Source: an uncultured Bifidobacteriaceae bacterium
GTDB lineage: Bacteria; Verrucomicrobiota; Verrucomicrobiia; Limisphaerales; JADLHS01
Direction of reading: 5' to 3'
Length of the DNA: 36,637 bases
Assembly: GCA_964364975.1 (NCBI GenBank)
Contig: CAYIOH010000001.1
Coordinates: 1 to 36,637 of the forward strand
Shown here: piece by piece, positions 4,348-36,629 of the stretch
How positions within the stretch are numbered: the stretch's first letter is position 1
How the letters are laid out: each line of letters starts with the position of its first letter
The notes under the pieces: generated by a model
What the model was told of the DNA's origin: nothing
Database searches by the model: none
The model's input: the letters and a program-made list of their open reading frames with translations, nothing else
Translations under genes and position numbers: made by a program

Positions 4348-5667
4348 CTAGGTTCTTGCCGGCTGCCGCTCCACTTCTGCCGGAATTTGATTTCTCTCCT
4401 TCGTTGCGTCCGCCGCCTTACCGCCAAGTTCGGCGATTAACGACCGGAATTTGTCCACCGCCAGTCGCCGATCGAATAATCTCTCGGCCAAGCCGCGTCC
4501 CCGCTGCCCCATTTCCTGAAGCTCTTCTCGATGATTGAATCCCCACAGAATCGCCGCGCGGAGCTGTTCAACCGAATTGGGTTCTACACGAATGCCGCAG
4601 CGGCCTTGCCGAATCAGCTCCGCGATGTCGCTTTCTTCTTCCACGGCCGCGATGAACGGACGGCCCGCGGCGAGAATGCCATAGACCTTGCTCGGCACGA
4701 TCAATCCCGCCAGCCCGCGTTCGAGCGTCACCAGATGAACGTCCGCCGCGCTCAATGAATACGAGAGCGATTCCTTCGGTTGGTAGGGAAGCAAGAGCAC
4801 GTTCTTCAATCCCAATGCCCGCGCCCTGGTCAGCAAGCGTTCCTTGGCGGCGCCTTCGCCCACGAAAACGAATCTGACCGTTGGCAAATCCTGCATCGCC
4901 GCCGCGATTTCGATCACTCGGTGCAGACCTTGCGACAGGCCCAAATTGCCCGAGTACATCACCACGAAACACCCGCCGAGTTGATGCTGTTCACGAAACG
5001 GATTCTGCTTTGGTTGGGGTCGCAGTTTTCTGGTGTCCACCCAATTCGAGATGATCCGGATTCGGCTGGCCCGACAGCAGGCCTTGGCTTTGACGCGCTC
5101 GCGCATGTCGTGGCCCAGCACAACCACGGCATCCGCCCCGCGAAGAATCTGGCGCGTGCCGGCGTCGAGCAGTTTGATCAGCAGCGGATTGTGCAATTGC
5201 CCCAGGGCGACGCCTACCTCGGGGAACAGATCCTGCACGTAAAACACAAATTTCGCCCGATGGAGCTTCGCGAACAACAAGCCGATCAATCCGAGCACGG
5301 GCGGGTCAGTCTCCGCCACGACGACTTCGGGCCGACGCGCGAAGAAGCCAGCCAGAAAACTGAAACAGAAGTACGACAACAGGTTCAGCACCCGTGCGGC
5401 GAAGAGGCGTTTGTTCAGTCGCGGGTTGTACGCCCGGAGGATACGGACGCGGCCCCGCGTCTCAGCGAGGATGGGAGACACCGAGCCCCAGCACGCCATA
5501 TTGTACGGGCGGCCCGCAACCACCGTCACCTCGTGCGTCTCGCTCAAGTCCTCGCACAACTCGGACAAGAGTTGCCCGGTGGCCTCGACGTCGGGATGGA
5601 AGGAGCGATTGAAGAATAGAATGTGCATATGGGACGGGAGGGCCGGGGTGGGCCGCTCCATCGGCAA
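4348..5667 (-). CDS. Glycosyltransferase family 4 (WcaI-like)
   Basis: 439-aa ORF. HILFFNRSFHPDVEATGQLLSELCEDLS...VTVVAG N-terminus resembles WcaI-type GT4; C-terminal GT1-fold motif LLPYQPKE...ADVHLVTLE. The start may be the internal ATG at 5628 (MHILFF). Confidence 0.75.
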   Translation of the reverse strand: MPMERPTPALPSHMHILFFNRSFHPDVEATGQLLSELCEDLSETHEVTVVAGRPYNMACWGSVSPILAETRGRVRILRAYNPRLNKRLFAARVLNLLSYFCFSFLAGFFARRPEVVVAETDPPVLGLIGLLFAKLHRAKFVFYVQDLFPEVGVALGQLHNPLLIKLLDAGTRQILRGADAVVVLGHDMRERVKAKACCRASRIRIISNWVDTRKLRPQPKQNPFREQHQLGGCFVVMYSGNLGLSQGLHRVIEIAAAMQDLPTVRFVFVGEGAAKERLLTRARALGLKNVLLLPYQPKESLSYSLSAADVHLVTLERGLAGLIVPSKVYGILAAGRPFIAAVEEESDIAELIRQGRCGIRVEPNSVEQLRAAILWGFNHREELQEMGQRGRGLAERLFDRRLAVDKFRSLIAELGGKAADATKERNQIPAEVERQPART

Positions 5668-7476: not shown

Positions 7477-7507
7477 AAGAGCAGTGAGCTTAGGGCGGGG
7501 CGCAAGG

Positions 7508-7834
7508 CTACTTTTTCAGGGTGCAGCGAAACGAATAACGCCTTTTGCTTTGCTCGGCGAGTTCGCTAAGCAAGTGTGCTGTTTCACTTGGTTGCAAGTG
7601 GCTTTCCCGCGTAAAGAGGATGAGCATGTTAGCAACCTCGAAAACGGATCGCCGCGCAGTGTTGAGAAAATTGGCAAAGTCCACATCGGATGCACTTCCC
7701 GACCCTTCGGCAATGTTGTTTGTAATACTCAGCACGGCAGCACGCAGTTGTTCCACAAAGCGATGGTAGCGCCGCTCGGCCAGCTTTTCGGCCAGCTTGA
7801 ACAGGGGCTGCTCAGGTCTGTGGCGCGTTGCCAA
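7508..7834 (-). CDS. Four-helix-bundle protein (23S rRNA intervening-sequence protein family)
   Basis: 108 aa. EQLRAAVLSITNNIAEGSGSASDVDFANFLNTARRSVFEV matches the conserved core of this family as I recall it. The N-terminal helix looks shorter than usual. Confidence 0.65.
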   Translation of the reverse strand: MATRHRPEQPLFKLAEKLAERRYHRFVEQLRAAVLSITNNIAEGSGSASDVDFANFLNTARRSVFEVANMLILFTRESHLQPSETAHLLSELAEQSKRRYSFRCTLKK

Positions 7835-7864
7835 ATCTGCAGGCTCTCGAATCGGAAGGAATCA

Positions 7865-8827
7865 TCACTCATGGTCAGGTGTTGTTCTTGGTTTGCGCCG
7901 GGATTCCCGTCTTGGCCCCTCGCTCCGGACTTCAGGCTCGCCGCTCCCCGCTCCTTGCTCGCGGCTAGCGACTCTCAGCTTTTGTTCCAAAAGCCGCAGT
8001 GACAAAATGATTTCCGCCAGCGTACGCTGAAAGACGTAGTACCAACCCCTCCAGCCGTCAAAGATCAGGCCTTTGCCGAGCAGCGTGTAAATGAAGACCA
8101 GGAACGGGGCGAACACGATCTTCCGCCGCACCCGATCGGCCAAGGACAGCCCTGTGAGCCCGGACGACGGACAACGGACCACGGACCACGGACCACAGAT
8201 TTCTGCTTTCAGATTTCTGCTTTCCGCTTTGCCCCATGCTCCCTGCTCCCCGCTCCCGGTTCTCATCAAATGCTCCGCTTCCAGCCTCGCATACCGATCC
8301 TGCTCCCTGAGCCAGCGATCCAGCGGCTTGCGATCGTCGTGATAGAGCACCGAGCGCAGCGGCAGGACCTTCCCCTCGATCTGCACCCGATGCCCATGCC
8401 CCTCGTCGCGATAGCGTGCGCGCTCCTTCTGGTAAAGCACCACCCGTGGCGGATAGAGCGACGCCCGCATTGGACGGCCCCAAACGCAGTAACGAAAACG
8501 GACGGAATAGCCGGCCACTCCTTGCTCCGGCCTCCATGCTCCAAGCTCGCGGACCAACTCCTCCGACAGCAGGTAGTCTGCGTCCAAGGAAAGCACCCAC
8601 GGCGTCCGAATGTGCTGCAAGCCGAAGTTGCACTGCTGCGCAAAGGAATCGAACTCCCGCTGTACGATCCACGCCTGCGGCAGCTTCCTCACCAAGTCAC
8701 ACGTCTCGTCCGTGCTGAAGCTATCGACCACCACGATCTCCTTCGCCCACCTCAGCCGCGACAACGTGCGCTCGATGTTCGGCGCTTCGTTGTACGTCAG
8801 AATGAGCGGCGTGATTTGAAGAAGCAT
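7865..8827 (-). CDS. Glycosyltransferase family 2, carrying an internal heptamer-array insertion and a heptamer-derived C-terminal tail
   Basis: 320 aa. TPLILTYNEAPNIERTLSRL...VVVDSFSTDET...LSLDADY GT2 motifs, and a C-terminal membrane-proximal region GWRGWYYVFQRTL. The segment GSGEQGAWGKAESRNLKAEICGPWSVVRCPSSG coincides with the DNA array at 8162-8259. Confidence 0.85.
   Translation of the reverse strand: MLLQITPLILTYNEAPNIERTLSRLRWAKEIVVVDSFSTDETCDLVRKLPQAWIVQREFDSFAQQCNFGLQHIRTPWVLSLDADYLLSEELVRELGAWRPEQGVAGYSVRFRYCVWGRPMRASLYPPRVVLYQKERARYRDEGHGHRVQIEGKVLPLRSVLYHDDRKPLDRWLREQDRYARLEAEHLMRTGSGEQGAWGKAESRNLKAEICGPWSVVRCPSSGLTGLSLADRVRRKIVFAPFLVFIYTLLGKGLIFDGWRGWYYVFQRTLAEIILSLRLLEQKLRVASREQGAGSGEPEVRSEGPRRESRRKPRTTPDHE
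7922..7984. repeat. Heptamer-periodic array (GCTCnnn phase) forming the C-terminal tail region of the GT2 gene
   Basis: GCTCCGG ACTTCAG GCTCGCC GCTCCCC GCTCCTT GCTCGCG GCTAGCG ACTCTCA GCTTTTG, with GCT recurring every 7 nt. Encodes ...RVASREQGAGSGEPEVRSE.... Confidence 0.5.
8162..8259. repeat. Mosaic heptamer array (14 units) inside the GT2 CDS
   Basis: GGACGAC GGACAAC GGACCAC GGACCAC GGACCAC AGATTTC TGCTTTC AGATTTC TGCTTTC CGCTTTG CCCCATG CTCCCTG CTCCCCG CTCCCGG. Confidence 0.85.
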
Positions 8828-8842
8828 GGACGGAAGGGTGGA

Positions 8843-8904
8843 GGTCAGAGATCAGAGATCAGAGGTCAGCCTTCGGTTTTCAGTCGTCAGTCGTCAGCCG
8901 TCGG
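8843..8904. repeat. Two heptamer arrays flanking a short core, intergenic and overlapping the GT4 stop codon
   Basis: GGTCAGA GATCAGA GATCAGA GGTCAG - ccttcggttt - TCAGTCG TCAGTCG TCAGCCG TCGG. The stop codon at 8894-8896 (TGA on the minus strand) is part of the second array. Confidence 0.85.
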
Positions 8905-10135
8905 AGACCACGCAATCCGGTTTTGGGCCTTGCCCGAGCGCCCAGCAGTAAACGGCGTGCATCTGCTCCGCGACGCCCAGCCAACTGTATCTGGTTTCCA
9001 CCAGTTGGCGGCCGCGGGCACCCATCTCGCGTCTCTCCTCATCAGTCTGGCCTATGGCTTGGCCTAAGGCCAAGGCCAGGTGTTCCGCACCGACGTCGAT
9101 ACACCAGCCGCAACGGTGCGTTTCCAATTCTTCCCACGGTGTGGCACGTGTTGTGATCACGGGCACACCACAGGCGAGCGCTTCGCCGACCACCAGGCCG
9201 AAATTTTCGGAGTAGCTTGGCAGAACGAACAGGTCCGCCCCGCGATAAAGCTCCCACCTGGCCTCACCTGCCACTTGCCCAGCGAATTCAAAGTCGTTCT
9301 CAATGTGTAGTTGACGGGCGAGAGCTTCGAGCTCCCGCTGGTGACAGCCTTCATCCCGGCCCGCGACGACGACCCGCCAACCTTGAGGTCGCACACTTGC
9401 CCAGGCGCACAGCAGATCAGGAAGCCCTTTTATTGGGTGTATCCTCCCCAGGTAGAGAAGGACCTTTGATCTGGAAGCGAAGGGCGAAGGACGAAGGGCG
9501 AAGGGCACTTTGCTCTCGGCTCTTGGCTTTTGGCTTAAATCCGGCACTTCGATCCCATTCGGCACGACCGCGATCGCCTGCCGCAGGCCCACCGCGCGAA
9601 ACTCCCGAGCCTCTTCTGGCGAGGTCGCATGCAACACTTGGGCGCACTGCAAGTCACGACGCTGATACAGCACCCAGGCGATCCGTTTCTTCAGCCCTTT
9701 GAATCGGAGTGCCCAGCTGGAGAGCATCCCACGTGGGCTGACGATACGAGGGATTCTGAATTCCCGGCACACTGTGGCCACCGCGTGGTTCGTCAACAAC
9801 CAAAGCCCGGTATCATGCACGAGTTGCACGTCCCCGTTACGAGAACGATCACGGATAGCAGATTTGAATCGCGGTGTCCACTGGGCACACCGCTCAAGCG
9901 CCGAACTGCAAGAGACGAGGGTTGTCTGTGCCGCCGCACGCGAGGGAATCAGAGGCTCGCCAAACCCCGGACCGTAATCGAGCGAAACCACCTCGACCTT
10001 AACGCCATGGTGCCCCAAAGCCTCACACAGTGCTGGCACACTGCGCGAAGGACCACCGCTTTCGGGATGCAATCCCGCAATCGCAAACAGGACTTTGAAT
10101 GAGGTCACGCTAAGCGGCAGCGCTATGCTCGGCAC
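8894..10135 (-). CDS. Glycosyltransferase family 4
   Basis: 413 aa. GT4 N-domain (GGPSRSV...), C-domain LGRIHPIKG, LPSYSENFGLVVGEALACGVPVITT (EX7E-type). A 21-codon low-complexity insert coincides with the array at 9474-9536. The stop codon lies inside the array at 8880-8904. Confidence 0.8.
   Translation of the reverse strand: MPSIALPLSVTSFKVLFAIAGLHPESGGPSRSVPALCEALGHHGVKVEVVSLDYGPGFGEPLIPSRAAAQTTLVSCSSALERCAQWTPRFKSAIRDRSRNGDVQLVHDTGLWLLTNHAVATVCREFRIPRIVSPRGMLSSWALRFKGLKKRIAWVLYQRRDLQCAQVLHATSPEEAREFRAVGLRQAIAVVPNGIEVPDLSQKPRAESKVPFALRPSPFASRSKVLLYLGRIHPIKGLPDLLCAWASVRPQGWRVVVAGRDEGCHQRELEALARQLHIENDFEFAGQVAGEARWELYRGADLFVLPSYSENFGLVVGEALACGVPVITTRATPWEELETHRCGWCIDVGAEHLALALGQAIGQTDEERREMGARGRQLVETRYSWLGVAEQMHAVYCWALGQGPKPDCVVSDG
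9474..9536. repeat. Mosaic heptamer array (9 units = 63 bp = 21 codons) inside the GT4 CDS
   Basis: GAAGCGA AGGGCGA AGGACGA AGGGCGA AGGGCAC TTTGCTC TCGGCTC TTGGCTT TTGGCTT. Translated on the minus strand as SQKPRAESKVPFALRPSPFAS. Confidence 0.85.
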
Positions 10136-10175: not shown

Positions 10176-11618
10176 TTATTTTCCGCACTGTGATTCCGTA
10201 CCAACTGCCGGCCACCCAGCGACTACCACATCGGCCGGTTTCGGCAGGCGAAATCTCGTTTTGCGCCGGAACCTTCCTATCGCAACGGCGCGACCGTTTG
10301 CACCCGAAAACACGCTCGCTCCTCGAGCGACGCAATAAGCTGCCGCAACGGCTGCACCAGCAGATGACATCAACTCGGCCAACCTCCCTGTTTGCACAAT
10401 AGACAGCGCAAGAACCGACCAACATAAGAACTTAGTAAGATTTTGCTTCTGCACGCTCGCGGCCATCTGATAGTCGCAATGCCGAGTCAATGATCCCAAC
10501 AGGAAATTGCCCACGAACAACCCGATGATTCCGAAGTTGATGTAAAACTCGAATGAGGGGCCTAGCCCAACGCTGGTAGTTTCTCGAAAATTCAGTCCTG
10601 TGTATTTGGCAACGATTTCTGAGTTGCCTACGTACACCGGCTTTCCTGGCCAGAGGATGCGCGGAATGAGAGCCGTGAAGCCTTCGACTATCGACTGGCC
10701 CCACAAGTATTCCACGTGCCCCGCCTGCAGGTTGTTGACCACTCTGCCGAACATCCATCCCTGCGCCAGCCTCGAAGTGATGACCTTCCGTTGCTGTGGA
10801 TCCCAAGGGTTGAACCACTCAAAGTTCTCGAAGGTATTCCGCATCTGTGCGGCGCGTACGGATAAGGCAGCTCCTTTTTCCCAGAGCAGTTCGCGCATGA
10901 CGGACCGGTCTCGCATGTACGTCTGGAAGATTGACATGCCGAGGTAACACAGGATACAGGCCGGAACGAGCATCCTTAATCTCCGTTGCGTTCTCCTTGT
11001 GATGACTGCCGCGAGAAGAGAAAAGATCATCAGACCGTAGCCAGAGAAACCAAGCAGAAGAACGGAGGCCGCGAAAACCACGGTGGCAATCGCAAACGCG
11101 GCCGTCAGCCCAGTTGATCCTGACACTGAGCCGCCGAAATTCGGGCGGAACAGGTAGCAAGCGAAAAGGGATGCAAGGACGATGGCCTTTCCACCGGAAG
11201 CGAGGGCTGTGGCTGTAGGCAAGCCCCGGACAAGAGGGAAAACCCCAAGCCAGACAACCAAGCCGGCCAGTCCAGTGGAATAAAGTTGCTTCCTTGAAAC
11301 TGTGTATGACCCCGGGCGCGTAGTCGCGCCCGTCGCCACCTTCACCTGCCGACGATGAATCAACAGCAAACCAAGGACGAAAGCCAAAAAGCTGATAGTG
11401 CCGTGCCTCTGAGAAACGAGGGCGAGCTGGGTTTCTTCCGAGGACCGGTACGAAAGTGAGACCAGCGCTGGAATCCAGTCATTCAATAAGGCAAAGACCA
11501 AGTACATGAGTGGATAAGCAGTGGTTGATATCCTTTGATCCAGGAACCGTCGTAGCATCAAAACGGCTGCGGACAGACGGATTGCCAGGAGGGCGGTGAT
11601 TTCAAATTCAACTTCCAC
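10176..11618 (-). CDS. Polytopic membrane protein, O-antigen polymerase/ligase-like (Wzy/WaaL superfamily) candidate
   Basis: 480-aa ORF with about 10 hydrophobic segments and one larger loop. Its position inside a glycan cluster and its locally lower GC are typical of wzy. No sequence motif was firmly recognised. Confidence 0.45.
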   Translation of the reverse strand: MEVEFEITALLAIRLSAAVLMLRRFLDQRISTTAYPLMYLVFALLNDWIPALVSLSYRSSEETQLALVSQRHGTISFLAFVLGLLLIHRRQVKVATGATTRPGSYTVSRKQLYSTGLAGLVVWLGVFPLVRGLPTATALASGGKAIVLASLFACYLFRPNFGGSVSGSTGLTAAFAIATVVFAASVLLLGFSGYGLMIFSLLAAVITRRTQRRLRMLVPACILCYLGMSIFQTYMRDRSVMRELLWEKGAALSVRAAQMRNTFENFEWFNPWDPQQRKVITSRLAQGWMFGRVVNNLQAGHVEYLWGQSIVEGFTALIPRILWPGKPVYVGNSEIVAKYTGLNFRETTSVGLGPSFEFYINFGIIGLFVGNFLLGSLTRHCDYQMAASVQKQNLTKFLCWSVLALSIVQTGRLAELMSSAGAAVAAAYCVARGASVFSGANGRAVAIGRFRRKTRFRLPKPADVVVAGWPAVGTESQCGK

Positions 11619-13127: not shown

Positions 13128-14537
13128 TCATCGCTCGTCCTTCGTAGTGACCAACTTTCGTACGGCCTCCACCGTTCCTTTCACCGCTTCCTCTAAACTG
13201 TAAGCCCGCATTTTTTCCTCCAGCGCCGGTGTGAAATCATACCCGGCCAATTTCATTTCCCCGAGCGCCATCAACCGGCCAGCCAGCGCTGTGACATCGG
13301 CGACAGGGAAAGCGAATCCGGTTCTTCCTCCCTCAATCAAGTCCGGCGCGCAACCCACAGCCACCGAAACAATCGCCGGCAACCCACACGCCATCGCTTC
13401 GTTGACCACCAGTCCCCACGTCTCGCTCTCTGAAGGCAGGACCAGCACCTCGGCGGCGGCATAATAACGCGGCAGTTCTGACTGGTTCTTGAAGCCAGTG
13501 AAGTGAACGCGCAGATTTTCCCGCGCCGCCAGTTCGCGCAATTCGTTCTCCAGTTCGCCAGCCCCGACGAATACGGCGAGCACATTCATCCCGGTAGGGC
13601 GCGTCACTCCGTGCGCGCCGATAGGTTGAATGGGCGTTCCGGACGGCGCGCACGGAGTGACGCGCCCTACCTTGGGATCCGCACGAAGGGTGAGTTCGCC
13701 TCGCAACTTCGCCATCGCCTGCAGTAAATCTTGCGGCCGCTTCTTCGGTATGAATTTTCCCACGAACAAAACCACTAATGTCCGCCGGCAGTCCTGTGGT
13801 CCTGTAGTCCCGTTGTCCTCATCCGTTACACCCCACTGTCTTCTAATTTCAGCTTTCTGCTTTCGCGCTATTTCTGCTTTCCCCCCGAACCATTCATTAT
13901 TCACAAAATGCGGCGCGAAAAATATTTTCCCCTCCGGCACGCCGTAATGCGCGAGATATTCCGCGTTGCGTCGGCCAACCGGTAGATACCCGGCGAATTG
14001 CCGGAGCAGTAGTCGATAGGCAATGGCCTTGACCGAGCGCTTAAGCCAGGAGCGGGGAGTACCGAGTTGGGAATCGCCCCGCACAAGAATCGGCACGCCC
14101 GCGCGCCGACATGCCCGCACCGCCTGCCAATACGATTTCAAATGCCAACCGCAAACGATGAAGGCGTCGAAGCGCTTCGCGCTTTGACCACTGACCACTG
14201 ACCACTGACCACTGACCTCCATCCCATGCTTTGTTGTCCCGTTGTCCGTTGTCCGCTGTCCCGTGGTCCCAGAAATGATGTCTGCAATTTCTGGCGTATC
14301 GCAGCCGAAGAAATTATTCACGCCAGGCCGTGCTGATACGTTGATCAGGAAACGGTGGTTGTAACCCGACAGCAAGTCCACGTCCCAATCGAACGCCACA
14401 CCAAACCCGGCCTTCCCCTGCTCCGCCGCCGATTGCCGGTGTGCAAAAAAACCCTCCAAATCCACTTCCTTTGCCAACCCGCGAAACCAAGGCGCCAGGT
14501 ATTGGATCGGATGACTTGCCAAAACTCCCAGTCGCAT
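13128..14537 (-). CDS. Glycosyltransferase family 4 interrupted in frame by three repeat-derived segments
   Basis: 469 aa. GT4/GT1-fold motifs FVGKFIPKKRPQDLL, VLPSESETWGLVVNEAMACGLPAIVS. Three non-family-like segments coincide with DNA repeats at 14186-14269, 13791-13881 and 13593-13671. Confidence 0.8.
   Translation of the reverse strand: MRLGVLASHPIQYLAPWFRGLAKEVDLEGFFAHRQSAAEQGKAGFGVAFDWDVDLLSGYNHRFLINVSARPGVNNFFGCDTPEIADIISGTTGQRTTDNGTTKHGMEVSGQWSVVSGQSAKRFDAFIVCGWHLKSYWQAVRACRRAGVPILVRGDSQLGTPRSWLKRSVKAIAYRLLLRQFAGYLPVGRRNAEYLAHYGVPEGKIFFAPHFVNNEWFGGKAEIARKQKAEIRRQWGVTDEDNGTTGPQDCRRTLVVLFVGKFIPKKRPQDLLQAMAKLRGELTLRADPKVGRVTPCAPSGTPIQPIGAHGVTRPTGMNVLAVFVGAGELENELRELAARENLRVHFTGFKNQSELPRYYAAAEVLVLPSESETWGLVVNEAMACGLPAIVSVAVGCAPDLIEGGRTGFAFPVADVTALAGRLMALGEMKLAGYDFTPALEEKMRAYSLEEAVKGTVEAVRKLVTTKDER
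13593..13671. repeat. Perfect 28-bp-stem palindromic element (REP/RPE-like) inside the GT4 CDS
   Basis: GGTAGGGCGCGTCACTCCGTGCGCGCCG (13593-13620) and its exact reverse complement CGGCGCGCACGGAGTGACGCGCCCTACC (13644-13671), with a 23-nt loop. Translated in frame as ...VGRVTPCAPSGTPIQPIGAHGVTRPT.... Confidence 0.9.
13791..13881. repeat. Mosaic heptamer array inside the GT4 CDS
   Basis: GTCCTGT GGTCCTG TAGTCCC GTTGTCC TCATCCG ... TTTCAGC TTTCTGC TTTCGCG CTATTTC TGCTTTC. Shares the 11-mer TTTCTGCTTTC (two copies here) and GTGGTCC/GTTGTCC units with 8162-8259 and 14186-14269. Confidence 0.75.
14186..14269. repeat. Mosaic heptamer array (12 units = 84 bp = 28 codons) with a perfect (GACCACT)4 tract, inside the GT4 CDS
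   Basis: GACCACT x4 (14186-14213) GACCTCC ATCCCAT GCTTTGT TGTCCCG TTGTCCG TTGTCCG CTGTCCC GTGGTCC. Encodes ...TTGQRTTDNGTTKHGMEVSGQWSVVSGQ.... Confidence 0.9.
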
Positions 14538-28590: not shown

Positions 28591-29420
28591 GTTGAAGCAT
28601 TCCTGGGGCGACCCCACCCGGAGACAGAAAACTCATATTCCCCCGAGGCAATCATCAGAAGGACCTGGAACACGACGAAAACTCTACCACGCCATCGCCG
28701 CCGCTTGCGGAGGGATCTGAGCATCCCGGGAGTGATACTGCGCCCGTGGGCAACATAGCCGCTCGTCGCCAGCAACTCGCGCAAGGCCTCCACAGTCCAA
28801 CGAGTGAGAAAATCCGGCGGATATCCAGTGCGACGGTCAACGCCGGGGAGCTTCAGCGGCCGGCGGAGACTCGGGGCCGTGATAAAAACCTGCGCTCGCG
28901 GAAGTCGGGCACGCAAGGCTGCCATAAATACCGCGGGTTGCGCCACACGGACGAGGCTTTCCAAAATAATCACGGCGTCAGCCTCCGACCAATCCGGCGG
29001 CAGTTCAGCGGGGTTGGCTGTCTGCATTGACGTGAAGCCATGCTTACGCAGTACGGAGACGTGAGAGGCAAGCGGGTCCGCCAAGCGCACCTCGTAGCCA
29101 AAGGACCTCAACTGCCATGCAAAACGTCCGGTCTCGGCGAATAGTTCCACAATCTCCGCGCCGGGGCTCAAGTTTCCTCGCACCCATTCGAGCGCCGCTT
29201 GCTCGTTTGGCGTCAGCCAAGTCTTGATCAGTTCGGGTGTGGCCCTTCCAAGCAAGTCATCTGCGTCCTCTGAAAAGTCAGGGTAAACCGGCCCGCTTAT
29301 CGGTTGGGGCTCGAGCCATTGCAACCCCGTCCGCCCGCAGCGAAAGTAAGCGCAGCCAGGCAGCCACTCGACCGCCTCCGCATGCGTTTCACGCCCCGTG
29401 ATAGGGTGTTTCAAGATCAT
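28587..29420 (-). CDS. Putative SAM-dependent methyltransferase-like protein
   Basis: The ORF is open to 29582. The ATG at 29420 overlaps the wzt stop (ATGA). [14 protein letters not shown]...VRLADP...[10 protein letters not shown] is weakly class-I-MTase-like. Function is tentative. Confidence 0.4.
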
Positions 29421-30778
29421 GAGGAAATTCGCCTCGAACTCCATGGAAGCAGCGGCGCGACCAGGCCGAGCCGAGCGTCGTTGACATCGGCGATAATACC
29501 GGCCACTGGTTCGATCGAAAAACTCGCGGCTTGATCCACTGAGAGCACCCCACACACCATCGGGATATCGATGCCAACCCAAAGGTAGTAGCGTCCACGG
29601 TTGAGCAGGTGAGCGGGAAACTCCACCTCGGAAACGTACGCGCCCGCTGGACGCGCTTGGAGTTTGCCTCCGAGCGAATCGCAGTCCGTCGTGGTTAACA
29701 CCACCGTGGTGTCCTGAGCGTGCAAACGGAAACCCAAACGCAATTGCGGCATGGCGGCAGTCAATTCGTAGGTCAGTCGCACACGGAAAGGTTCGTGGTT
29801 CGGCAAGAATGAGGAAGGATTGCCTTCTGAATTGAGAACTTCGACGGAGCGAAGAATCAACGGATGCTCGGCAGCTTTGAGGTTGAGCTTGCCGTTGTCG
29901 GAGTGCCGAGCGGCGCTGTCATTGAGGTAACGGGCGATCACTCTCGCGGGATCGCTCTGATCAGTCAACCGTCCAGCGTTCAGCAGAATGGCGCGAGAGC
30001 AAAGATTGCCAACTGTTCCCATGTTGTGGCTGACGAACAGAACGGTGCGTCCTTGCTGGTGGGCCACTTCGTCCATCTTACCCAAACATTTCTTCTGAAA
30101 CGACGTGTCCCCTACTGCCAGCACTTCGTCCACCACCAGAATTTCCGGTTCCAAATGCGCCGCCACCGCAAACGCCAGCCGCACATACATGCCGCTGCTG
30201 TAGTGTTTCACCGGCGTGTCCAGAAACCTTTCCACTTCCGCAAACGCCACGATTTCGTCGAACTTCTTTTTGATCTCCGCCCGGCTCATTCCCAGGATGG
30301 CGCCGTTCAGGAAGATGTTTTCCCGCCCCGTCAATTCGGGATGGAACCCCGTTCCCACTTCCAACAAACTCGCCACGCGCCCTTTGATGCGTATCTTACC
30401 CGTAGTCGGCTCGGTGATGCGGCTGAGAATTTTGAGCAGCGTGCTTTTCCCCGCGCCGTTGCGCCCGATGATGCCGACCACTTCGCCTTGTTTGACCTCG
30501 AAGGAAACGTCGCGCAAGGCCCAAAAATCTTCGGTTCGTGGAAGACTGGAGTTAGAAGACGGGAGATGGGAGCCGGGAGATCGAACCGAACTGCTATCTG
30601 CTATCTTCGACCTGCCAAAGCCCCAGAGGCGACGGGCGAGGGAGCGGGGAGCACAGAGCGCGGAGCCGGCCTTCTCGGCCAGCACGTCGCGCAGGGCGGT
30701 GTAGCGCTGCCGCTGGGCCTGGTGTTGCAGACGGTATTTCTTGCCGAGGTTCTCGACCGATATGATCGCTTCGCTCAT
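29417..30778 (-). CDS. wzt: O-antigen/polysaccharide ABC exporter ATP-binding protein (Wzt/TagH type) with C-terminal glycan-binding (Wzt_C-like) domain and a 42-codon repeat-derived insert
   Basis: The ATG at 30778 ([17 protein letters not shown]) is the family-typical start; the ORF is open to 30913. Walker [10 protein letters not shown], signature YSSGM, Walker B ILVVDE. A ~170-aa C-terminal beta-rich extension follows. The insert SALCAP...NSSLP coincides with the array at 30541-30666. Confidence 0.9.
30541..30666. repeat. Mosaic heptamer array (18 units = 126 bp = 42 codons) inside the wzt CDS
   Basis: GAAGACT GGAGTTA GAAGACG GGAGATG GGAGCCG GGAGATC GAACCGA ACTGCTA TCTGCTA TCTTCGA CCTGCCA AAGCCCC AGAGGCG ACGGGCG AGGGAGC GGGGAGC ACAGAGC GCGGAGC. 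Confidence 0.8.
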
Positions 30779-30809
30779 TTTCCAAAAAAGCAACAATCTA
30801 AAACGCTGA

Positions 30810-30854
30810 CAAACTGAAAGTTGAAGATTGCAAGGCTGGCACGCCAAACTGAAA
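30810..30854. promoter_or_regulatory. 10-bp direct repeat CAAACTGAAA x2 (35-bp spacing) in the AT-rich gap upstream of wzt
   Basis: CAAACTGAAA at 30810-30819 and 30845-30854. This is the only clearly AT-rich stretch directly 5' of the wzt start (30778). A regulatory role is speculative. Confidence 0.2.
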
Positions 30855-30866
30855 TCATTGCTGCTT

Positions 30867-31558
30867 TCAGCGCTCCCTTTCGGCACGCCTGACCCACGAA
30901 TCGTGAATCTCAACGAATGTGGTGCGCAGATCCCTGGTGATGGTCCAACTGGGGTAGTGGGTCTTCATCTTGTCGAGGTTCGAGATGTAGCAGATGTGGT
31001 CGCCTTGCCGGTTTTGGTCCACATATACGTAATTCATTTTCTTGCCGGAGATTTCCGAGATCAAGTCAAAGGCTTCCAGAATGGAAACGGAGTTGGCGCG
31101 GCTGCCGCCCAGGTTGTAAACCTCGCCGCAGCGCGGCGACTCAATAAATCGGCGCATGAATTGCACGACATCGTGGCTGTGGATGTTGTCGCGCACCTGC
31201 TTGCCCTTGTAACCGAAAACCTTGTACGCGCGGCCCGCCAGGTTACACTTGATGAGGTAGCTAGGAAGCCGTGCAACTCGACGCCGCTGTGGTTCGGTCC
31301 CGTAAGGCAACCGCCGCGCAGGCAGCAGGCGGGCATCCCGAAGTAGCGGCCGTATTCCTGTACCATGACGTCCGCCGCCACCTTCGATGCGCCGAAAATG
31401 GAGTGCTTACTCTGGTCAATGCGGAAGGTTTCCCGGATGCCATCCGCGTAGGCCGGATCGGCATAGTCCCATCGCTGGTCGAGTTCCATGAGTGGAATCT
31501 CGTTGGGCGCGTCGCCATAAACCTTGTTCGTGCTCATGTGGACGAATGGGGCTATTGC
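30867..31558 (-). pseudogene. C-terminal two-thirds of an SDR epimerase (CDP-paratose-2-epimerase-like family), frameshifted
   Basis: Two overlapping ORF fragments (31061-31537 and 30867-31310). They read [20 protein letters not shown]...GASKVAAD...VELHGFL and then, in another frame, [31 protein letters not shown]...GDHICYISNL. The frame switch is near 31262. An in-frame TAG at 31559-31561 bounds the homology. Confidence 0.75.
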
Positions 31559-31570
31559 CTAGCTTTCGAC

Positions 31571-31739
31571 GGTGATGATGACGGAGTCACCCATCGGGAT
31601 AGAAGACACGGCTCTTGCTGGAAGATGGCGGATAGCAGATGGAAGATTGTTCCACTACTTCCCGTTTCGCTTTTCCAACTGTAATCTCTGGTCTTTGATC
31701 TATCATCTTCATACTTCCAACTCCCATCTTCGCGCGGCT
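31571..31739. repeat. Heptamer-periodic spacer between the wzm stop and the epimerase C-terminal pseudogene fragment
   Basis: GAAGATG GCGGATA GCAGATG GAAGATT GTTCCAC TACTTCC CGTTTCG CTTTTCC AACTGTA ATCTCTG GTCTTTG ATCTATC ATCTTCA TACTTCC AACTCCC ATCTTCG. GAAGAT-type units on the left and their complements (ATCTTC) on the right give imperfect dyad symmetry. Confidence 0.75.
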
Positions 31740-31744
31740 GGCGC

Positions 31745-32611
31745 TCAGATAACGTCTGCAAACGTGCGCTCCATCTTCCGGAAGTACCAGATACCTAGAA
31801 AGAGCAGCACAACCACCAGCGCTATAGAAAGACAGAACCCCGGCCAGTAGATCTTGCTGTGACCGCCTAGGATTGCCCAACGGAATCCGTCAATAACACC
31901 CACCATCGGGTTAAGGGAATAAATGGTGAAGAGAGTGCCGCCAAAGCGTTCACGGATGACCGAGCTGCTGAAGCCGACGGGCGAGGCATAAAGACCAAAC
32001 TGGACGAGAAACGGAATCACATAACGGAAATCACGGTACTTGACGTTGAGGGCGGTGATCAGAAGGCCCGGCCCAATGGCGGCGAGAAAGGCCAGCGCAA
32101 TGAACAGGGGCAGCGTCACAATGCGCCAATCCGGCCAGAATTGAAACCAAGCCATCATGGCCACCAGGATGCCAAAGGCGATCAGGAAATCTACAAAGCT
32201 GGTGATGACCGCGCCGGCCGGGATGATCATGCGGGGGAAATAGACTTTGGAGATGAGATTGGCGTTGCCCACCAGGCTCTGGCTGGCTGAGGACAGCGAG
32301 GTGGAGAAGAACATCCAAGGCAGCATGGCCGCGAAGACCATGACCGAGTAGGGGGCGGTGCCCTCAGTCGGCAGCTTCGCGACTTTGCCGAACACGACGG
32401 TCATGATGAGCATGGTCAGCAGCGGCTGGATAAGCGCCCACGCAACGCCAATGACAGTCTGCTTGTAACGGACCGCAATGTCCCGCCAAGCCAGAATGTA
32501 AAAGAGCTCACGGTAGCGCCAAAGGTCGCGCCAGTATTGGCGTTGCGTGCGCCCCGGTTCGATGATCAATTCGTGGGACACGATGGGGTTGGGAGCTAGC
32601 TCATGGTGCAT
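31745..32611 (-). CDS. wzm: ABC-2 type polysaccharide exporter permease
   Basis: WRDLWRYRELFYILAWRDIAVRYKQTVIGVAWALIQPLL is the Wzm/ABC-2 N-terminal signature, followed by 6 TM segments. The ATG at 32611 is proposed as the start. The ORF stays open to 32800 because it runs in frame out of the epimerase N-terminal fragment. Confidence 0.85.
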   Translation of the reverse strand: MHHELAPNPIVSHELIIEPGRTQRQYWRDLWRYRELFYILAWRDIAVRYKQTVIGVAWALIQPLLTMLIMTVVFGKVAKLPTEGTAPYSVMVFAAMLPWMFFSTSLSSASQSLVGNANLISKVYFPRMIIPAGAVITSFVDFLIAFGILVAMMAWFQFWPDWRIVTLPLFIALAFLAAIGPGLLITALNVKYRDFRYVIPFLVQFGLYASPVGFSSSVIRERFGGTLFTIYSLNPMVGVIDGFRWAILGGHSKIYWPGFCLSIALVVVLLFLGIWYFRKMERTFADVI

Positions 32612-32793
32612 GAAGCCGGGAAGTTCCCGCTGCAGGCGTTGCTGGTTCCAACGCGTGTCCCCATGCGGCCCGAAAAAAACCGCGCGCTGGTTGTTGGCCA
32701 CTCCGTGAATGGCATAACCCAGCTCCCGGGGAAAAAAGCGCCAACTTTGGACCCGATGAGGCCGGAGGAACCCGTCACGAGAAGCGTCTTCAT
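32597..32793 (-). pseudogene. N-terminal ~65 codons of the same SDR epimerase, frameshifted at a homopolymer and fused in frame to wzm
   Basis: MKTLLVTGSSGLIGS (frame of ORF 32596-32793), then FFPRELGYAIHGVANNQRAVFFGPHGDTRWNQQRLQRELPGFMHHEL (frame of ORF 31745-32800). The frame switch is at the GGGGAAAAAA run, 32728-32737. Confidence 0.7.
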
Positions 32794-32827
32794 GGTTCAC
32801 TTGTCATCAGCGATCCGTGGTCCGTCG

Positions 32828-33477: not shown

Positions 33478-34743
33478 TCAGTTTTGTTGGATTGATGAGG
33501 CGGCTGCCGCTTTCGGCGGCGAAAGCGCTTCCAGTCTGGGAACAAGCCGTTCCACGATCTCATGCACGCGAGTTTGGAAGCTTTCGAACGAAAAATCATT
33601 AAGGCTGGCTGAAACAAATCCGCGAGGCCACTTCAGCGCCGCCAGGATTCCTTCCCGGATCTCTGCGGGGTTCCTCGGGTCAACGATGAATCCCAGCTTC
33701 CCACCGCCCACCACCTCGCAGCTCGCGTCGGCTTTGCTCGCAACGACCGGAATTCCACAAGCCATCGCTTCCAAGTAAACGATACCGAATCCTTCACCCC
33801 AGCCCGGCATCACGAAGGCATCCGCCATGCGGTAATGATCCACTTTTTCGTCCTCTGGGATTCGGCCGGCGAAAACGACCTGCGCGGGGTTGAGCGTGGA
33901 GCGTGGAGCGTGGAGGGTCGGGGAGTGGGGCTTCGATACCTCACCCAACCCTCTCCCCGATCGATGCGGAGAGGGCGATGAGTTAGCGCGCGCGCAGTCG
34001 GTCACGGAAAGGCCGAGTGATTGCGCCTTGTTCATCAAGCGCTCCCGGTCCGTTCCATCGCCGACGACGAGGTAGCAAAGACTTGGGATTTCTTTCGACA
34101 AATCAGGCAGAACTTCCATGACTCTGTCCACTCCCTTGTACCGTTCCTGCGCCGAAAGGCGTGCCACGGTCAGCAGGACTGTCCGGTCGCGCAGACAATA
34201 ACGGTCGAGCAGTTGCGAGTTTTTTGGGCCGGGGCGGAAAGCAGCCAACTCGATGCAGTTGGGCAAAATGAAAGTCCGAACGCCGTCCAATCGCGCCCAG
34301 CCCAGAAATCGCTGCTTCGTAAACTCGCTTACCGCAATCAGGGCGTTGATTCTCCTGACCAATCGATTGACCAGCCAACTGCGAGTCGGTTGCCACGCGT
34401 CAATGCCATGGATTACCAACGCGACCGGCGCACGGCAAAACAATCGCGCCGCCAATGCGACCGATAGCAGATTGATGTGGCCGCAAATCAGAAGGTCAGG
34501 GGTCGGAAGTCGGAGAACGGTGGTCAAAACCGTTTTGATATAGCGCAGTTTGCTGCCGACGCCGGAGGTGACGTAGTTAAGCTTCGTCGGCAGTGCGCCG
34601 GGCGGCTCGGGCATCAAGCGTGGAACAGCCACAACTTCTTCAACGTCCTGGGCCGCACAGAGCGCGGTCAGCAGATCGCGATTGAACTTCGCGATGCCTC
34701 CGAAACCGCCGAAGGCGTCCGTCACGAGAACCAGAATGCGCAT
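33478..34743 (-). CDS. Glycosyltransferase family 4 with ~40-codon repeat-derived insert
   Basis: 421 aa. MRILVLVTDAFGGFGGIAKFNRDL N-terminus; VMPGWGEGFGIVYLEAMACGIPVVAS C-domain. The segment VTDCARANSSPSPHRSGRGLGEVSKPHSPTLHAPRSTLNPA coincides with 33892-33982. The start ATG shares one base with the asnB stop (TGATG). Confidence 0.8.
   Translation of the reverse strand: MRILVLVTDAFGGFGGIAKFNRDLLTALCAAQDVEEVVAVPRLMPEPPGALPTKLNYVTSGVGSKLRYIKTVLTTVLRLPTPDLLICGHINLLSVALAARLFCRAPVALVIHGIDAWQPTRSWLVNRLVRRINALIAVSEFTKQRFLGWARLDGVRTFILPNCIELAAFRPGPKNSQLLDRYCLRDRTVLLTVARLSAQERYKGVDRVMEVLPDLSKEIPSLCYLVVGDGTDRERLMNKAQSLGLSVTDCARANSSPSPHRSGRGLGEVSKPHSPTLHAPRSTLNPAQVVFAGRIPEDEKVDHYRMADAFVMPGWGEGFGIVYLEAMACGIPVVASKADASCEVVGGGKLGFIVDPRNPAEIREGILAALKWPRGFVSASLNDFSFESFQTRVHEIVERLVPRLEALSPPKAAAASSIQQN
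33892..33982. repeat. Heptamer array (GAGCGTG)3... plus small hairpin, inside the GT4 CDS
   Basis: GAGCGTG x3 GAGGGTC GGGGAGT GGGGCTT CGATACC TCACCCA ACCCTCT CCCCGAT CGATGCG GAGAGGG CGATGAG. CCCTCTCC (33949-33956) pairs with GGAGAGGG (33968-33975). Confidence 0.8.
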
Positions 34744-36629
34744 CAGTTTCGAGTGAACCGATCGTAAACCTGCCTGGCCCAGCCACGAAGGCCGCGAGAA
34801 TTCGCGCGGGGTTGAGCGTTGAGGGAAAAGGTTTGAGAGTCGCGCAAAAGCCAGTCGCGGACCGGGACGGAAAAGCCGGTCTTGGGCCGGGCAAGCAGGG
34901 CAGCAGGGAGCGGAGAGCGGGGAGTAAGGGCCATGTCGCGCTTGGTCGGAGGCGTCTCGCTGGCGAGCAACGGAGCGACCGCGTGCAGGACCGCCACGTC
35001 CACCAGCGGCACGCGGATTTCCAGCGAGTGAGCCATGCCTGCCCAGTCCGAATCACGCAGGAGTTGGTTGCGCATGTACCAGCACATCTCGAGAGCACTG
35101 ACGCGCACGCGGCCAGAGTTCAGAGGACAGAAGTCAGAATTTGGAACTGATCGCCGATCTCTGATCGCCGATCTCTGAGAAAGCAGACCAGCGGTCAAAT
35201 TCAACAAGGCAAGGGTGTTGAGCTCTTCCCAGCCTTCGCGCACGAGGTCCGGCTCGAGCAATTCAGGCAGTTCCCAAGGCATGAACAGACCACGGCGGAG
35301 CAGGTAGGCATCGGCGTAGCTGGAGCCGTATTCGAGCAGCCCGGCGTATTTGGGCGAGGTGAAGCGATTGAGCACGGGGGTGGAAATCACACGAAGCGCG
35401 CGGCCAAGCGAACGGGCAAAAGGCAAAGGGCGAAGGGCCTTCACGAGGCGCGGAATTTCGCGAAAGCTGGGATAGCCGCCGAACAATTCGTCGCCGCCCA
35501 AACCGGACAGGGCGACCTTCAGCGAAGCGCGCGCGGCGGCGAAGCTGACGAAGTAGGTGTTGACGCCATCCGTGCTCGGCTGATCCATTGCGTCGAAAAG
35601 GCGATTAACGTGAGTTTGAAAATCTCGACGCGCGACCCAAATGGTCTGGTGTTGTGCGCCGTATTGGCGGGCGACGGCTTCGGCGAACGGGACTTCATCG
35701 TTGGCCGTCCCACGAAATTCCTCGAATCCCAGTGTGACCGTGCGCAAACGGCCGCCTTGCTCGGCGGCCAGCGCGGCAAGTGTCGTCGAGTCCAAGCCGG
35801 ATGACAGAAACACACCGACGGGGACATCGGCGATCAGGTGGTGCCGGATTGTGTCCTGGAGAGCGAAGCGCAACAAGTCGTGGAGTTGAGGGCTGGGGGC
35901 TGAGGGTTGAGAGTTCGAGCGTTCGGCATGCGAAAGGATTTCCGTGATTGAGCAGAATTTGCGCTCCCGTCGCCCGCCGCCCTGGCCAACCCAAAGCGTC
36001 GCACCCGGCGGCAAGGACCGGATGGTCTTGAACAGCGTGTAGGGTTCAGGCACGTGTCCCCACAGGAAGAAACCGACGTGCCCGGCCGGATCGGGTGTCT
36101 TCTCAATGTATCCGCCCGCGAGCAACGCCTTCACTTGCGAGGCCGCTCGAAATGTCCTGCCGTCATCCGCAAAATATAGCGGTTTGATGCCGAACGGGTC
36201 GCGCGCCAAAAGCAAGCCGCGTTGCTCGCCATCCCAGAGCGCAAAGGCATACATGCCGCGCAGATCGTTCATCATCGCCTCGCCTTTCTGCGCGTAGAGC
36301 CGGAGCAACACTTCCGTGTCGCTGTTGGATTTGAACACATGGCCTTGTTGTTCGAGCGCCGCGCGCAGTTCGCGGTAGTTGTAAATCTCGCCGTTGAAAA
36401 CGATCGCCAGTTGAAACTCCGGCAGCAGCATGGGCTGCGCACCGGCCGGGGACAGATCAATGATTGAAAGCCGGCGATGGCCAAGACCAACGCGGTGCAA
36501 AGGATCGAACCACTCTCCTGCCCCATCAGGACCACGCAGCGTCATGTGGTCGCGGATGGCGCGCAGTTCCCCGTCATTCACGCCGGGCGCGTCAGAGTTG
36601 TAGGCGAAGATGGCTGCTATGCCACACAT
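34743..36629 (-). CDS. asnB: Asparagine synthase (glutamine-hydrolysing) family amidotransferase
   Basis: 628 aa. MCGIA N-terminal nucleophile, HRRLSIIDLS, GEIYNYRELR, and the PP-loop VGVFLSSGLDST. Three clear repeat-derived segments and one tentative segment lie in the C-terminal half. Confidence 0.9.
   Translation of the reverse strand: MCGIAAIFAYNSDAPGVNDGELRAIRDHMTLRGPDGAGEWFDPLHRVGLGHRRLSIIDLSPAGAQPMLLPEFQLAIVFNGEIYNYRELRAALEQQGHVFKSNSDTEVLLRLYAQKGEAMMNDLRGMYAFALWDGEQRGLLLARDPFGIKPLYFADDGRTFRAASQVKALLAGGYIEKTPDPAGHVGFFLWGHVPEPYTLFKTIRSLPPGATLWVGQGGGRRERKFCSITEILSHAERSNSQPSAPSPQLHDLLRFALQDTIRHHLIADVPVGVFLSSGLDSTTLAALAAEQGGRLRTVTLGFEEFRGTANDEVPFAEAVARQYGAQHQTIWVARRDFQTHVNRLFDAMDQPSTDGVNTYFVSFAAARASLKVALSGLGGDELFGGYPSFREIPRLVKALRPLPFARSLGRALRVISTPVLNRFTSPKYAGLLEYGSSYADAYLLRRGLFMPWELPELLEPDLVREGWEELNTLALLNLTAGLLSQRSAIRDRRSVPNSDFCPLNSGRVRVSALEMCWYMRNQLLRDSDWAGMAHSLEIRVPLVDVAVLHAVAPLLASETPPTKRDMALTPRSPLPAALLARPKTGFSVPVRDWLLRDSQTFSLNAQPRANSRGLRGWARQVYDRFTRN
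34801..34842. repeat. Short heptamer array (about 6 units) near the 3' end of asnB
   Basis: TTCGCGC GGGGTTG AGCGTTG AGGGAAA AGGTTTG AGAGTCG. Encodes SQTFSLNAQPRANS. Same GnGTTGA unit family as 35883-35924. Confidence 0.55.
35114..35197. repeat. Mosaic heptamer array (about 12 units) inside asnB
   Basis: CAGAGTT CAGAGGA CAGAAGT CAGAATT TGGAACT GATCGCC GATCTCT GATCGCC GATCTCT GAGAAAG CAGACCA GCGGTCA. GATCTCTGATC (35156-35166) is the exact reverse complement of GATCAGAGATC at 8850-8860. Confidence 0.8.
35883..35924. repeat. Heptamer array (6 units = 42 bp = 14 codons) inside asnB
   Basis: GAGTTGA GGGCTGG GGGCTGA GGGTTGA GAGTTCG AGCGTTC. Occupies codons 236-249 exactly (ERSNSQPSAPSPQL), just upstream of the PP-loop. 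Confidence 0.75.

Follow-up and report, generated by a model that had tools for sequence, protein, structure and literature searches.

Salmonella Paratyphi A carries rfbE (tyv), the gene for the CDP-tyvelose 2-epimerase, in an inactivated form, and its branching sugar is consequently paratose instead of tyvelose (PMC5826628). A comparable situation is described here for the 36,637-bp contig CAYIOH010000001.1 of a groundwater bacterium, analysed over its whole length and called the window; all coordinates are given on it, and the genes under study lie on its minus strand. The likeness to rfbE resides in the same superfamily branch, in the location within an O-antigen cluster and in a mutated gene whose surroundings have otherwise remained functional. 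The lesions are of another kind, since the epimerase gene of the window is physically split by its neighbour wzm and has lost ~58 codons in addition to carrying two frameshifts. Its family is moreover merely TyvE-like, with a phenylalanine in place of the catalytic tyrosine, no CDP-hexose partners are present on the contig, and the host is an uncultured environmental bacterium, probably of the Verrucomicrobiota. In all likelihood, this locus contains a recently inactivated TyvE-like epimerase gene, broken by a local rearrangement in a co-directional cluster of the O-antigen type that depends on an ATP-binding cassette (ABC) transporter.

The exporter encoded next to the epimerase resembles the WzmWzt of Aquifex aeolicus and the mycobacterial Wzm-Wzt (PMC9445017): the window likewise combines an ABC-2 permease with an ATPase bearing a C-terminal carbohydrate-binding domain, followed by a methyltransferase. 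The comparison loci are labelled L001 to L092 and the homologous proteins P0001 onwards. In the usual ABC-dependent loci, wzm and wzt are adjacent (30-40 nucleotides (nt) apart, for example in L004 and L006), whereas in the window they are separated by a spacer of ~970 nt with a dead gene. Insertions between wzm and wzt are likewise found in L007, L052, L088 and L089, but these consist of intact small accessory genes, whereas the insert of the window is made of the 3' two-thirds of the upstream neighbour.

The two epimerase fragments are the N- and C-terminal parts of one gene for a short-chain dehydrogenase/reductase (SDR) resembling CDP-tyvelose/paratose-2-epimerases. Once joined, the pieces retrieve thousands of 350-residue proteins from the protein database, the best 120 with E values from 1e-148 to 1e-163. 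These homologues are named CDP-paratose 2-epimerase by JGI, where the source names them, and the best solved-structure relatives of the family are the TyvE entries 9rl0 and 1orr of the PDB. By whole-protein similarity, both fragments belong to the TyvE-like extended SDRs. A profile built from the 120 intact homologues was run with hmmsearch and found the gene in four pieces distributed over three frames, at profile positions 1-24 (E = 4e-6), 22-65 (3e-18), 124-223 (8e-67) and 223-350 (1e-79); this same search gave no match for positions 66-123 at the locus. An earlier reading of the letters alone (the sequence-only reading) had proposed a single SDR epimerase with a central gap, to be given up if the fragments matched different families. 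They do not: database search and profile assign them to the same family, one profile matching all four pieces, and positions 66-123 are gone.

The N-terminal fragment (32597-32793, profile positions 1-65) opens at the ATG at 32793 with MKTLLVTGSSGLIGS..., includes the Rossmann motif TGSSGLIGS and ends with its HHEL codons at 32597. It is covered by the hmmsearch domains 1-24 and 22-65 and by tblastn with residues 1-29 and 20-66 of P0001, and its DNA (32792-32598) aligns to nt 2-197 of the intact L003 gene with one 1-nt gap. The C-terminal fragment (30867-31552, positions 124-350), which includes the TNK segment and GASK, was delimited with the profile, DNA alignment and tblastn; it terminates at the TGA 30869-30867 and is also present in L092. 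Its DNA (31549-30901) aligns to nt 382-1031 of the L003 gene at 79.5% identity, again with one 1-nt gap. The homology sets in at ~31552/31549 and is clear from A/PFVHM onwards. In the protein alignment, the reconstructed epimerase is 78-83% identical to eight homologues, with a single gap between ...HHEL and the C-terminal part. Frameshift 1 (32728-32737) is a net 1-nt deletion in or next to a T6C4 run (TTTTTTCCCC; GGGGAAAAAA on the plus strand), identical in L001 and L002. Frameshift 2 (31261-31263) is a 1-nt deletion at 31262 (GGCTTCCT-AGCTAC; TTCCT-AGCTAC versus TTCTTAAGCTAT), away from any long homopolymer and shared with L092. The alignment to the L003 gene reproduces both frameshifts, as well as the end of the N-terminal fragment, where the sequence-only reading had placed them; the C-terminal fragment exists as announced, but its claimed start at 31558 lies ~2 codons too far upstream. 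The coordinates also bear out that wzm sits inside the epimerase gene, with the dead 3' fragment between wzm and wzt.

An uninterrupted open reading frame (ORF) of ~340-355 residues with a complete Rossmann domain is thus lacking: positions 66-123 are missing, the frame is shifted twice and wzm is intercalated, and for these reasons the gene is a pseudogene and not a functional member of its family. What is missing is the part of the Rossmann core, strands as well as helices, that connects the glycine-rich loop to the catalytic TNK segment. Judging from the SDR structure (TaTyvE, PMC13098431), the product would be non-functional even with both frameshifts bypassed. The SDR catalytic triad is Thr124/Tyr164/Lys168 in TaTyvE numbering, together with the TNK segment (PMC13098431). 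In the family of the window, the triad is incomplete, the equivalent of Tyr164 being a phenylalanine in 119 of the 120 homologues and a leucine in the remaining one. The TNK segment (Thr124-Asn125-Lys126) and Lys168 are invariant in all 120 and retained in the C-terminal fragment. The window itself reads FGASK at 31390-31376, with phenylalanine in the catalytic-tyrosine column like all but one of the homologues P0001-P0120. The clade is TyvE-like by sequence, and its chemistry may differ from that of canonical TyvE.

The arrangement recurs in other assemblies. L001 (ENA ERZ1292636, Hainich groundwater, well H32) is 100% identical to the window over 35895-32083 and covers junction 1, between the N-terminal fragment and wzm, together with frameshift 1. 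Frameshift 1 recurs in L002 (Logan SRR32696677), which matches the window at 100% over 33734-32626. L092 (ERZ1292633, well H41), found by an exact search for junction 2, between the spacer behind wzm and the C-terminal fragment, is 99.76% identical over 31855-30195 and spans this junction, the whole C-terminal fragment, frameshift 2 and the wzt start. It differs from the window by three single-nucleotide polymorphisms (SNPs) and one indel, and these four differences make it a separate haplotype. The indel is an extra A in the spacer at 31667 and one SNP, at 31245, is synonymous; at the two others, L092 keeps a family-invariant residue that is replaced in the window (E174A at 31237 and G270S at 30950, both invariant in eight homologues). 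Two window-specific replacements among three SNPs suggest, as far as such a small number allows, a pseudogene drifting after its inactivation. The disabling lesions are common to two haplotypes from two wells.

By comparison, the transporter genes are intact. The wzm gene (31745-32581), with 278 codons plus a stop when counted from the GTG at 32581, encodes an ABC-2 type polysaccharide-export permease (PF01061, 59.1 bits for a cut-off of 26.9). Its ABC2_membrane domain scores above the gathering threshold and the similarity to Wzm proteins extends over the full length: the Wzm part is 88% identical to homologues of 277-278 residues (96% of the query), and the PDB Wzm chains 9qfx and 6m96 match it with E = 2.7e-20 and 3.1e-15. 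The NCBIfam galactan Wzm equivalog scores 61.9 against a cut-off of 380, so that the protein does not belong to this specific subfamily. The wzt gene (29417-30778, ATG at 30778) shares its strand and follows after a gap of 966 nt (31744-30779). It encodes an ABC ATPase with a Wzt_C carbohydrate-binding domain, both Pfam domains scoring above their cut-offs (ABC_tran 84.7 bits; Wzt_C 38.3 bits, cut-off 30.4), and its nucleotide-binding domain (NBD) is 76-84% identical to that of relatives. Between the epimerase stop and the wzt ATG lies an 88-nt spacer (30779-30866) with weak periodicity (lag-7 z = 1.4).

The original gene order can be approached through the relatives. In the loci with the closest Wzm (L004-L006, 84-85% identical), the order is NusG-MarR-wzm-wzt-methyltransferase, with 30-38 nt between wzm and wzt. 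The epimerase also occurs in three of the 80 GTDB loci retrieved with a Wzm alignment (L052, L008 and L049), all three from Verrucomicrobiota, and always upstream of wzm in the same orientation. L052, from Akkermansiaceae UBA2367, displays the order of the window with a whole epimerase, and thereby supplies the comparison that the sequence-only reading had called for: DUF218, an intact epimerase of 354 residues, wzm, a small DUF3368 (toxin-antitoxin) gene, wzt and a methyltransferase. Among the other loci with a DUF218 protein, L089 reads DUF218-wzm-x-wzt and L088 DUF218-x-x-wzm-wzt. From these loci, the ancestral order was probably DUF218-epimerase-wzm-wzt-methyltransferase, with a swap of wzm and the 3' part of the epimerase giving the present one. 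Epimerase fragments around wzm were seen in no related locus, and the rearranged state is therefore specific to the population of the window.

Separation of the transporter genes is by itself common: in 11 of 60 related loci (~18%), at least 1 kb lies between wzm and the Wzt NBD, and the transporter evidently tolerates the uncoupling of its genes. The inserts found in relatives are genes for 23S_rRNA_IVP four-helix-bundle proteins, for DUF3368/PIN-type and HepT-type toxin-antitoxin systems and for HNH proteins. The interval between wzm and wzt appears as a recurrent insertion slot (L007 6949-11289, L052 6898-7883, L088 11629-12448 and L089 5501-5983).

The history that we propose would start from DUF218, epimerase, wzm, wzt and methyltransferase. 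A block of 15 nt, wzm and its heptamer-periodic 3' spacer would have come to lie inside the epimerase after codon ~66, where most of positions 66-123 of the profile, with the NAD-binding Rossmann core, used to be, and the 3' two-thirds of the epimerase would have ended up between wzm and wzt. The two 1-nt deletions would have followed or accompanied this rearrangement. The epimerase would from then on be dead and drifting neutrally, with wzm and wzt intact, presumably still on the read-through transcript of the cluster, and Wzt starting from the ATG at 30778. In this account, we infer the ancestral order, the moved segment and its mechanism, the start codon in use and the dispensability of the epimerase. 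Three routes would fit: excision and re-insertion of wzm, tandem duplication of the unit made of C-terminal fragment, wzm and spacer followed by two deletions, or template switching during replication. Both borders of the block contain the hexamer AGCTAG (32601-32596 and 31564-31559). As a junction microhomology it was given no weight, its chance expectation being estimated at roughly 0.1.

Some points weigh against this history. No close sister genome with an intact arrangement was found by scanning genome contigs with the DUF218 protein or by protein search, the nearest DUF218 homologue being 66% identical and the nearest epimerase 83%, and for this reason the ancestral order rests on distant relatives. 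L001, being 100% identical, is of uncertain independence from the window's own assembly, and L002 ends 29 nt before it would reach junction 1. Where Wzm starts, and that wzt is expressed although ~970 nt of dead DNA precede it, are predictions from the nucleotide sequence. Finally, no second epimerase copy exists on the 36.6-kb contig, but an intact paralogue may be present elsewhere in the genome. The contig is also devoid of a cytidylyltransferase, a CDP-glucose dehydratase and a DegT-type gene, the partners of a CDP-hexose pathway, and the lack of both these genes and an epimerase copy fits the loss of a step no longer needed.

The part played by the repeats deserves closer consideration. 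The whole region from the wzm stop to the C-terminal fragment (31744-31550) amounts to ~190-195 nt and contains a degenerate heptamer-periodic spacer (31601-31744), strongest at 31676-31732, where GAAGATG-like units are followed by inverted ATCTTCC-like units. Such a spacer had been noticed in the sequence-only reading, and its periodicity is confirmed (lag-7 z = 5.1-5.4). The lag-7 autocorrelation reaches 0.415, while shuffles give 0.25 +/- 0.03; the values at lags 14 and 21 are raised as well, and the maximum lag-7 z in 79 coding chunks of the same length from the contig is 2.07; this period-7 repetition is beyond chance. The repeats are called degenerate because Tandem Repeats Finder (minimum score 30) made no call in 31550-31744, where three near-identical head-to-tail copies are not found. 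The spacer holds an inverted repeat and, relative to L092, the 1-nt indel polymorphism at 31667. Its predicted RNA fold is no better than that of shuffles (z = -1.1), Rfam gave nothing meaningful in it (E = 0.54 and 0.78, below the gathering score) and no terminator was found there. A derivation from the small genes that relatives carry between wzm and wzt (23S_rRNA_IVP, DUF3368) was considered too and rejected, as the spacer has no similarity to them.

Since the tract abuts one junction, the sequence-only reading had linked the repeats to the rearrangement. They might have caused it, through recombination between flanking tracts that excised and re-inserted wzm, or have arisen from it, as filler DNA made by slippage. 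The adjacency is not trivially expected, as the heptamer-periodic intergenic spacers of the contig number three out of 13; the other two are 8828-8893 (z = 7.3) and 32794-32827 (z = 3.8), and the remaining ten are without such periodicity. The notion that all intergenic spacers here are heptamer tracts is accordingly wrong. In L007, GCAACTA arrays occur on both sides of wzm and before wzt, and intergenic heptamer repeats have been suggested to act in gene rearrangement in other bacteria (PMC4679880). Yet the 84 nt that follow the wzm stop are heptamer-periodic (z > 3) in nine of 85 related loci (zero at lag 6 and three at lag 8), none of which has this rearrangement, and a native origin is thus sufficient. 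The other junction (32597) has no tract, and the unit sequences of the contig tracts all differ, which speaks against a shared mobile element. In the close relatives L004 and L005, which are among the nine, the wzm 3' flank is made of CGATCTT-type units that resemble the ATCTTCC units of the window. These nine loci make the tract a recurrent native feature behind wzm, and the one in the window is probably, by this comparison, wzm's own 3' spacer and not a scar of the rearrangement. A causal role is therefore unlikely, and the proposed link is weakened by the ~10 further heptamer-periodic tracts on the contig together with the periodic wzm flanks of relatives.

Most of these other tracts are coding. 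Those at 7911-7983, 8138-8272, 9460-9547, 14154-14242, 30557-30666, 33873-33947, 35109-35179, 35414-35438 and 35887-35911 lie inside long ORFs without breaking the frame. The ORFs concerned encode GT2, GT4 and other glycosyltransferases, the linker of Wzt and AsnB. The tract in the GT4 gene at 33478-34743 falls where the protein has ~42 additional residues relative to PimA (PDB 4n9w), and in Wzt a length-variable N-terminal linker is filled by the tract 30557-30666. It looks as if surface loops had grown in frame through slippage in steps of 7 nt. Tracts flanking wzm were also observed in L004 (5831-5868) and L007 (~5940-6000 and ~11220-11289), and downstream of wzm in L011, L012, L024, L042, L019, L080 and L072. 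The units of the wzm-flanking arrays vary (GCAACTA, GCAGAGG, CCTGTCT, GTGAGAG, TAATTAG and others), and their hosts span Planctomycetia, Verrucomicrobia, Anaerolineae and Cyanobacteria.

Comparable intergenic heptamer direct repeats are the short tandemly repeated repetitive (STRR) sequences of cyanobacteria. Another likeness is provided by the TAACTGA repeats of Beggiatoaceae, Cyanobacteria and Bacteroidetes, short intergenic arrays of 7-nt units beside start and stop codons, for which a role in translation control or gene rearrangement was suggested (PMC4679880). Unlike these, the spacer of the window is degenerate and without three exact copies, the units differ from tract to tract, and many tracts lie inside ORFs, where they encode loop insertions. 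A bolder idea would make the heptamer tracts active sites of slippage and recombination, shuffling the cassettes of glycan clusters, as in the move of wzm with one tract into its neighbour, and growing in-frame loops in glycosyltransferases and Wzt, and thus a general generator of diversity for surface-polysaccharide loci; we regard it as quite improbable. In a smaller variant of this idea, frameshift 1 would have been selected: epimerase and Wzm, at first fused in frame, would have been separated by it, leaving an upstream ORF of 65 codons that feeds the wzm GTG.

Another possibility is that wzm was not moved locally but imported by horizontal gene transfer, as a foreign cassette that landed in the epimerase, the native wzm between epimerase and wzt being lost. 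The Wzm of the window is 84-85% identical to that of the NusG-MarR-wzm-wzt loci (L004-L006) and merely 65-70% identical to that of the loci with a DUF218 context (L052, L089), as an import would predict. The corresponding Wzt NBD identities are however saturated, at 72-84% for all pairs, and L004, L006 and L007 show a like mismatch between Wzm and Wzt among themselves. The comparison of Wzm with Wzt NBD identities, tried as evidence for import, was consequently rejected as uninformative. The GC content is not distinctive and no integrase or transposase is annotated among the genes of the 36.6-kb contig. A foreign origin of wzm appears doubtful, and a local rearrangement of the native gene is preferred.

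The position of wzm behind the epimerase N-terminus raises the question of its start codon. A 351-residue ORF (32800-31745, from the GTG at 32800) connects the epimerase-derived part to Wzm with no intervening stop, as the sequence-only reading had seen. It does so because the 15-nt linker that joins the last epimerase codon to the start of wzm (32582-32596, GCTCCCAACCCCATC) contains no stop in the wzm frame; this linker is pyrimidine-rich, like the DNA upstream of wzm in L052 and L007. The probability of an open frame across 15 nt is ~0.26 by our estimate (1/3 for the frame x 0.79 for no stop). The closest Wzm homologues begin with M-x-x-E-L-(I/V)-I-E-P-G-R and the window reads GTG-S-H-E-L-I-I-E-P-G-R; in the alignment, the GTG (32581-32579) falls in the methionine column of the homologues, and the residue before it is an isoleucine. 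As the GTG occupies this column, the gene can be read as 32581-31745, with its native start preserved 15 nt past the junction. From the sequence, Wzm would rather start at this GTG in its native position, and the open frame that reaches it from the epimerase fragment is most likely fortuitous.

The further claim of that reading, that Wzm is translated with or from within a 63-codon epimerase-derived leader, is not supported, in view of the GTG in the methionine column and of frameshift 1. Owing to this frameshift, translation from the epimerase ATG ends at the TAG 32598-32596, and the outcome is not a fusion but an upstream ORF of 65 codons (32596-32793), present in the ORF list as in the sequence, which stops 14 nt before the wzm GTG. 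This remnant might feed ribosomes to wzm by termination-reinitiation, that is, by translational coupling. The Shine-Dalgarno motif is missing from most contig genes, and its absence before the wzm GTG is thus uninformative. For the same reason the choice of start cannot be read from the sequence, which leaves some room for products with an epimerase-derived N-terminal extension: one of 288 residues from the ATG at 32611, which is improbable, and the complete 351-residue fusion from the GTG at 32800, which is very much so. In their favour, no stop codon interrupts the frame between 32800 and the end of wzm, a gene caller annotated such an ORF on L001, and extensions of 20-40 residues are annotated at the N-terminus of some homologues (P0133, P0139, P0144). 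On the other hand, the closest homologues have 277-278 residues, starting exactly where the GTG lies, the GTG at 32800 is in another frame than the epimerase ATG and lacks support from homologues, and chance readily accounts for an open frame of 15 nt. Gene callers nevertheless join the frameshifted epimerase remnant, the linker and wzm into one protein (window 32800-31745; L001 3096-3812). Database entries for the Wzm of the window will carry ~73 spurious N-terminal residues: the 351-residue "Wzm" ORF is a pseudogene/gene chimera, and the epimerase fragments deserve a flag as one pseudogene.

The wording that the central ~60 codons were replaced by wzm and a spacer holds for the absence of positions 66-123, but "replaced" is slightly too strong in view of a possible relic. 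A stretch of 34 nt (31567-31600) is identical at 24 of 34 nt to the L052 gene at codons IPFDDFDTNAVG (local score z = 4.4 versus shuffles); it matches L003 at ~19 of 34 nt, counted by hand on the aligned sequences, and is in frame and collinear with the C-terminal fragment apart from a 30-nt deficit. The profile of 120 homologues does not detect it. Tentatively, and on nucleotide similarity, 31600-31567 may be a decayed in-frame relic of epimerase codons IPFDDFDTNAVG, and the last 50 nt before the C-terminal fragment may then not belong to the spacer. An extension of this view would have wzm inserted without any deletion, the entire 190-nt spacer being what decay or overwriting has left of the 184 central nucleotides of the epimerase. 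The lengths are indeed nearly equal (184 nt missing for a spacer of ~190-195 nt) and the 34-nt stretch lies where it should. Against this, the protein profile has no match for positions 66-123, no DNA signal is obtained with L003 and L008 (z = 0.4 and -0.4), and the 5' half of the spacer is a heptamer tract of the kind seen after wzm in relatives. In addition, the flanks are still ~80% identical, and decay by point mutation cannot explain a complete loss of similarity between them. The spacer was thus rejected as a complete diverged mid-section, the possible 34-nt relic set apart, and pure insertion is very unlikely, leaving rearrangement with loss of most of the mid-section as the preferred reading. 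That the junctions and frameshifts were made by assembly chimerism or sequencing errors is scarcely credible: the matching metagenome contigs are of low coverage (cov 4 and cov 2 in their names) and frameshift 1 lies in a homopolymer run, but both junctions and both frameshifts reappear in three further assemblies, which come from two wells or more, L092 represents a haplotype of its own and frameshift 2 is outside long homopolymers. Misassembly, which the sequence-only reading had asked to exclude, is thus very unlikely at junction 1 and as good as excluded at junction 2.

Nearly all genes of the contig lie on the minus strand and together form one polysaccharide-biosynthesis cluster. It comprises an AsnB-like amidotransferase, several GT4, GT2 and GT9 glycosyltransferases, methyltransferases, a carbamoyltransferase, a pyruvyl transferase, a deacetylase, a GDP-mannose 4,6-dehydratase with a partner epimerase/reductase, a WecA-type initiating transferase, wzm and wzt. 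The split locus is flanked by wzt (30778-29417) and by the DUF218 (YdcF-like) gene (33451-32828; PF02698, E = 2.3e-10), an upstream neighbour that serves as synteny anchor since the order DUF218-epimerase-wzm also exists in L052. Simple scans found no promoter-like sites around the locus, and the terminator-like hits there (three for 3.2 expected) are at chance level. Exact-protein look-ups of the 351-residue ORF, of the 158-residue ORF of the C-terminal fragment and of Wzt matched no record. Elsewhere in the window, tblastn gives a weak match (E = 1.3e-4) of the 23S_rRNA_IVP-family protein from L007 to 7634-7851 (minus strand); the matching DNA lies in a 388-nt gap (7477-7864) between the carbamoyltransferase and GT2 genes and may be a small uncalled gene or a relic. 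In L052, an intergenic repeat of ~80 nt (…GAAATTTCGAAATGAGGAAA…CACCGCGCT…CTTCATTTC…CCCAATTTCAGC…) at 4806-4916, 5982-6072 and 7800-7883 precedes the epimerase, wzm and wzt genes.

The event is a further example of the well-known gene decay and local rearrangement in surface-polysaccharide clusters. Of possibly wider interest than the pseudogene itself are the heptamers that flank wzm across phyla, the loops encoded by heptamers and the TyvE-like clade without the catalytic tyrosine. For the organism, the locus provides a population-level record of a groundwater bacterium whose polysaccharide cluster lost one sugar-modifying enzyme through a change in gene order while keeping its exporter. The likely consequence would be an altered surface glycan, in parallel with the rfbE pseudogene that separates Salmonella Paratyphi A from Typhi.

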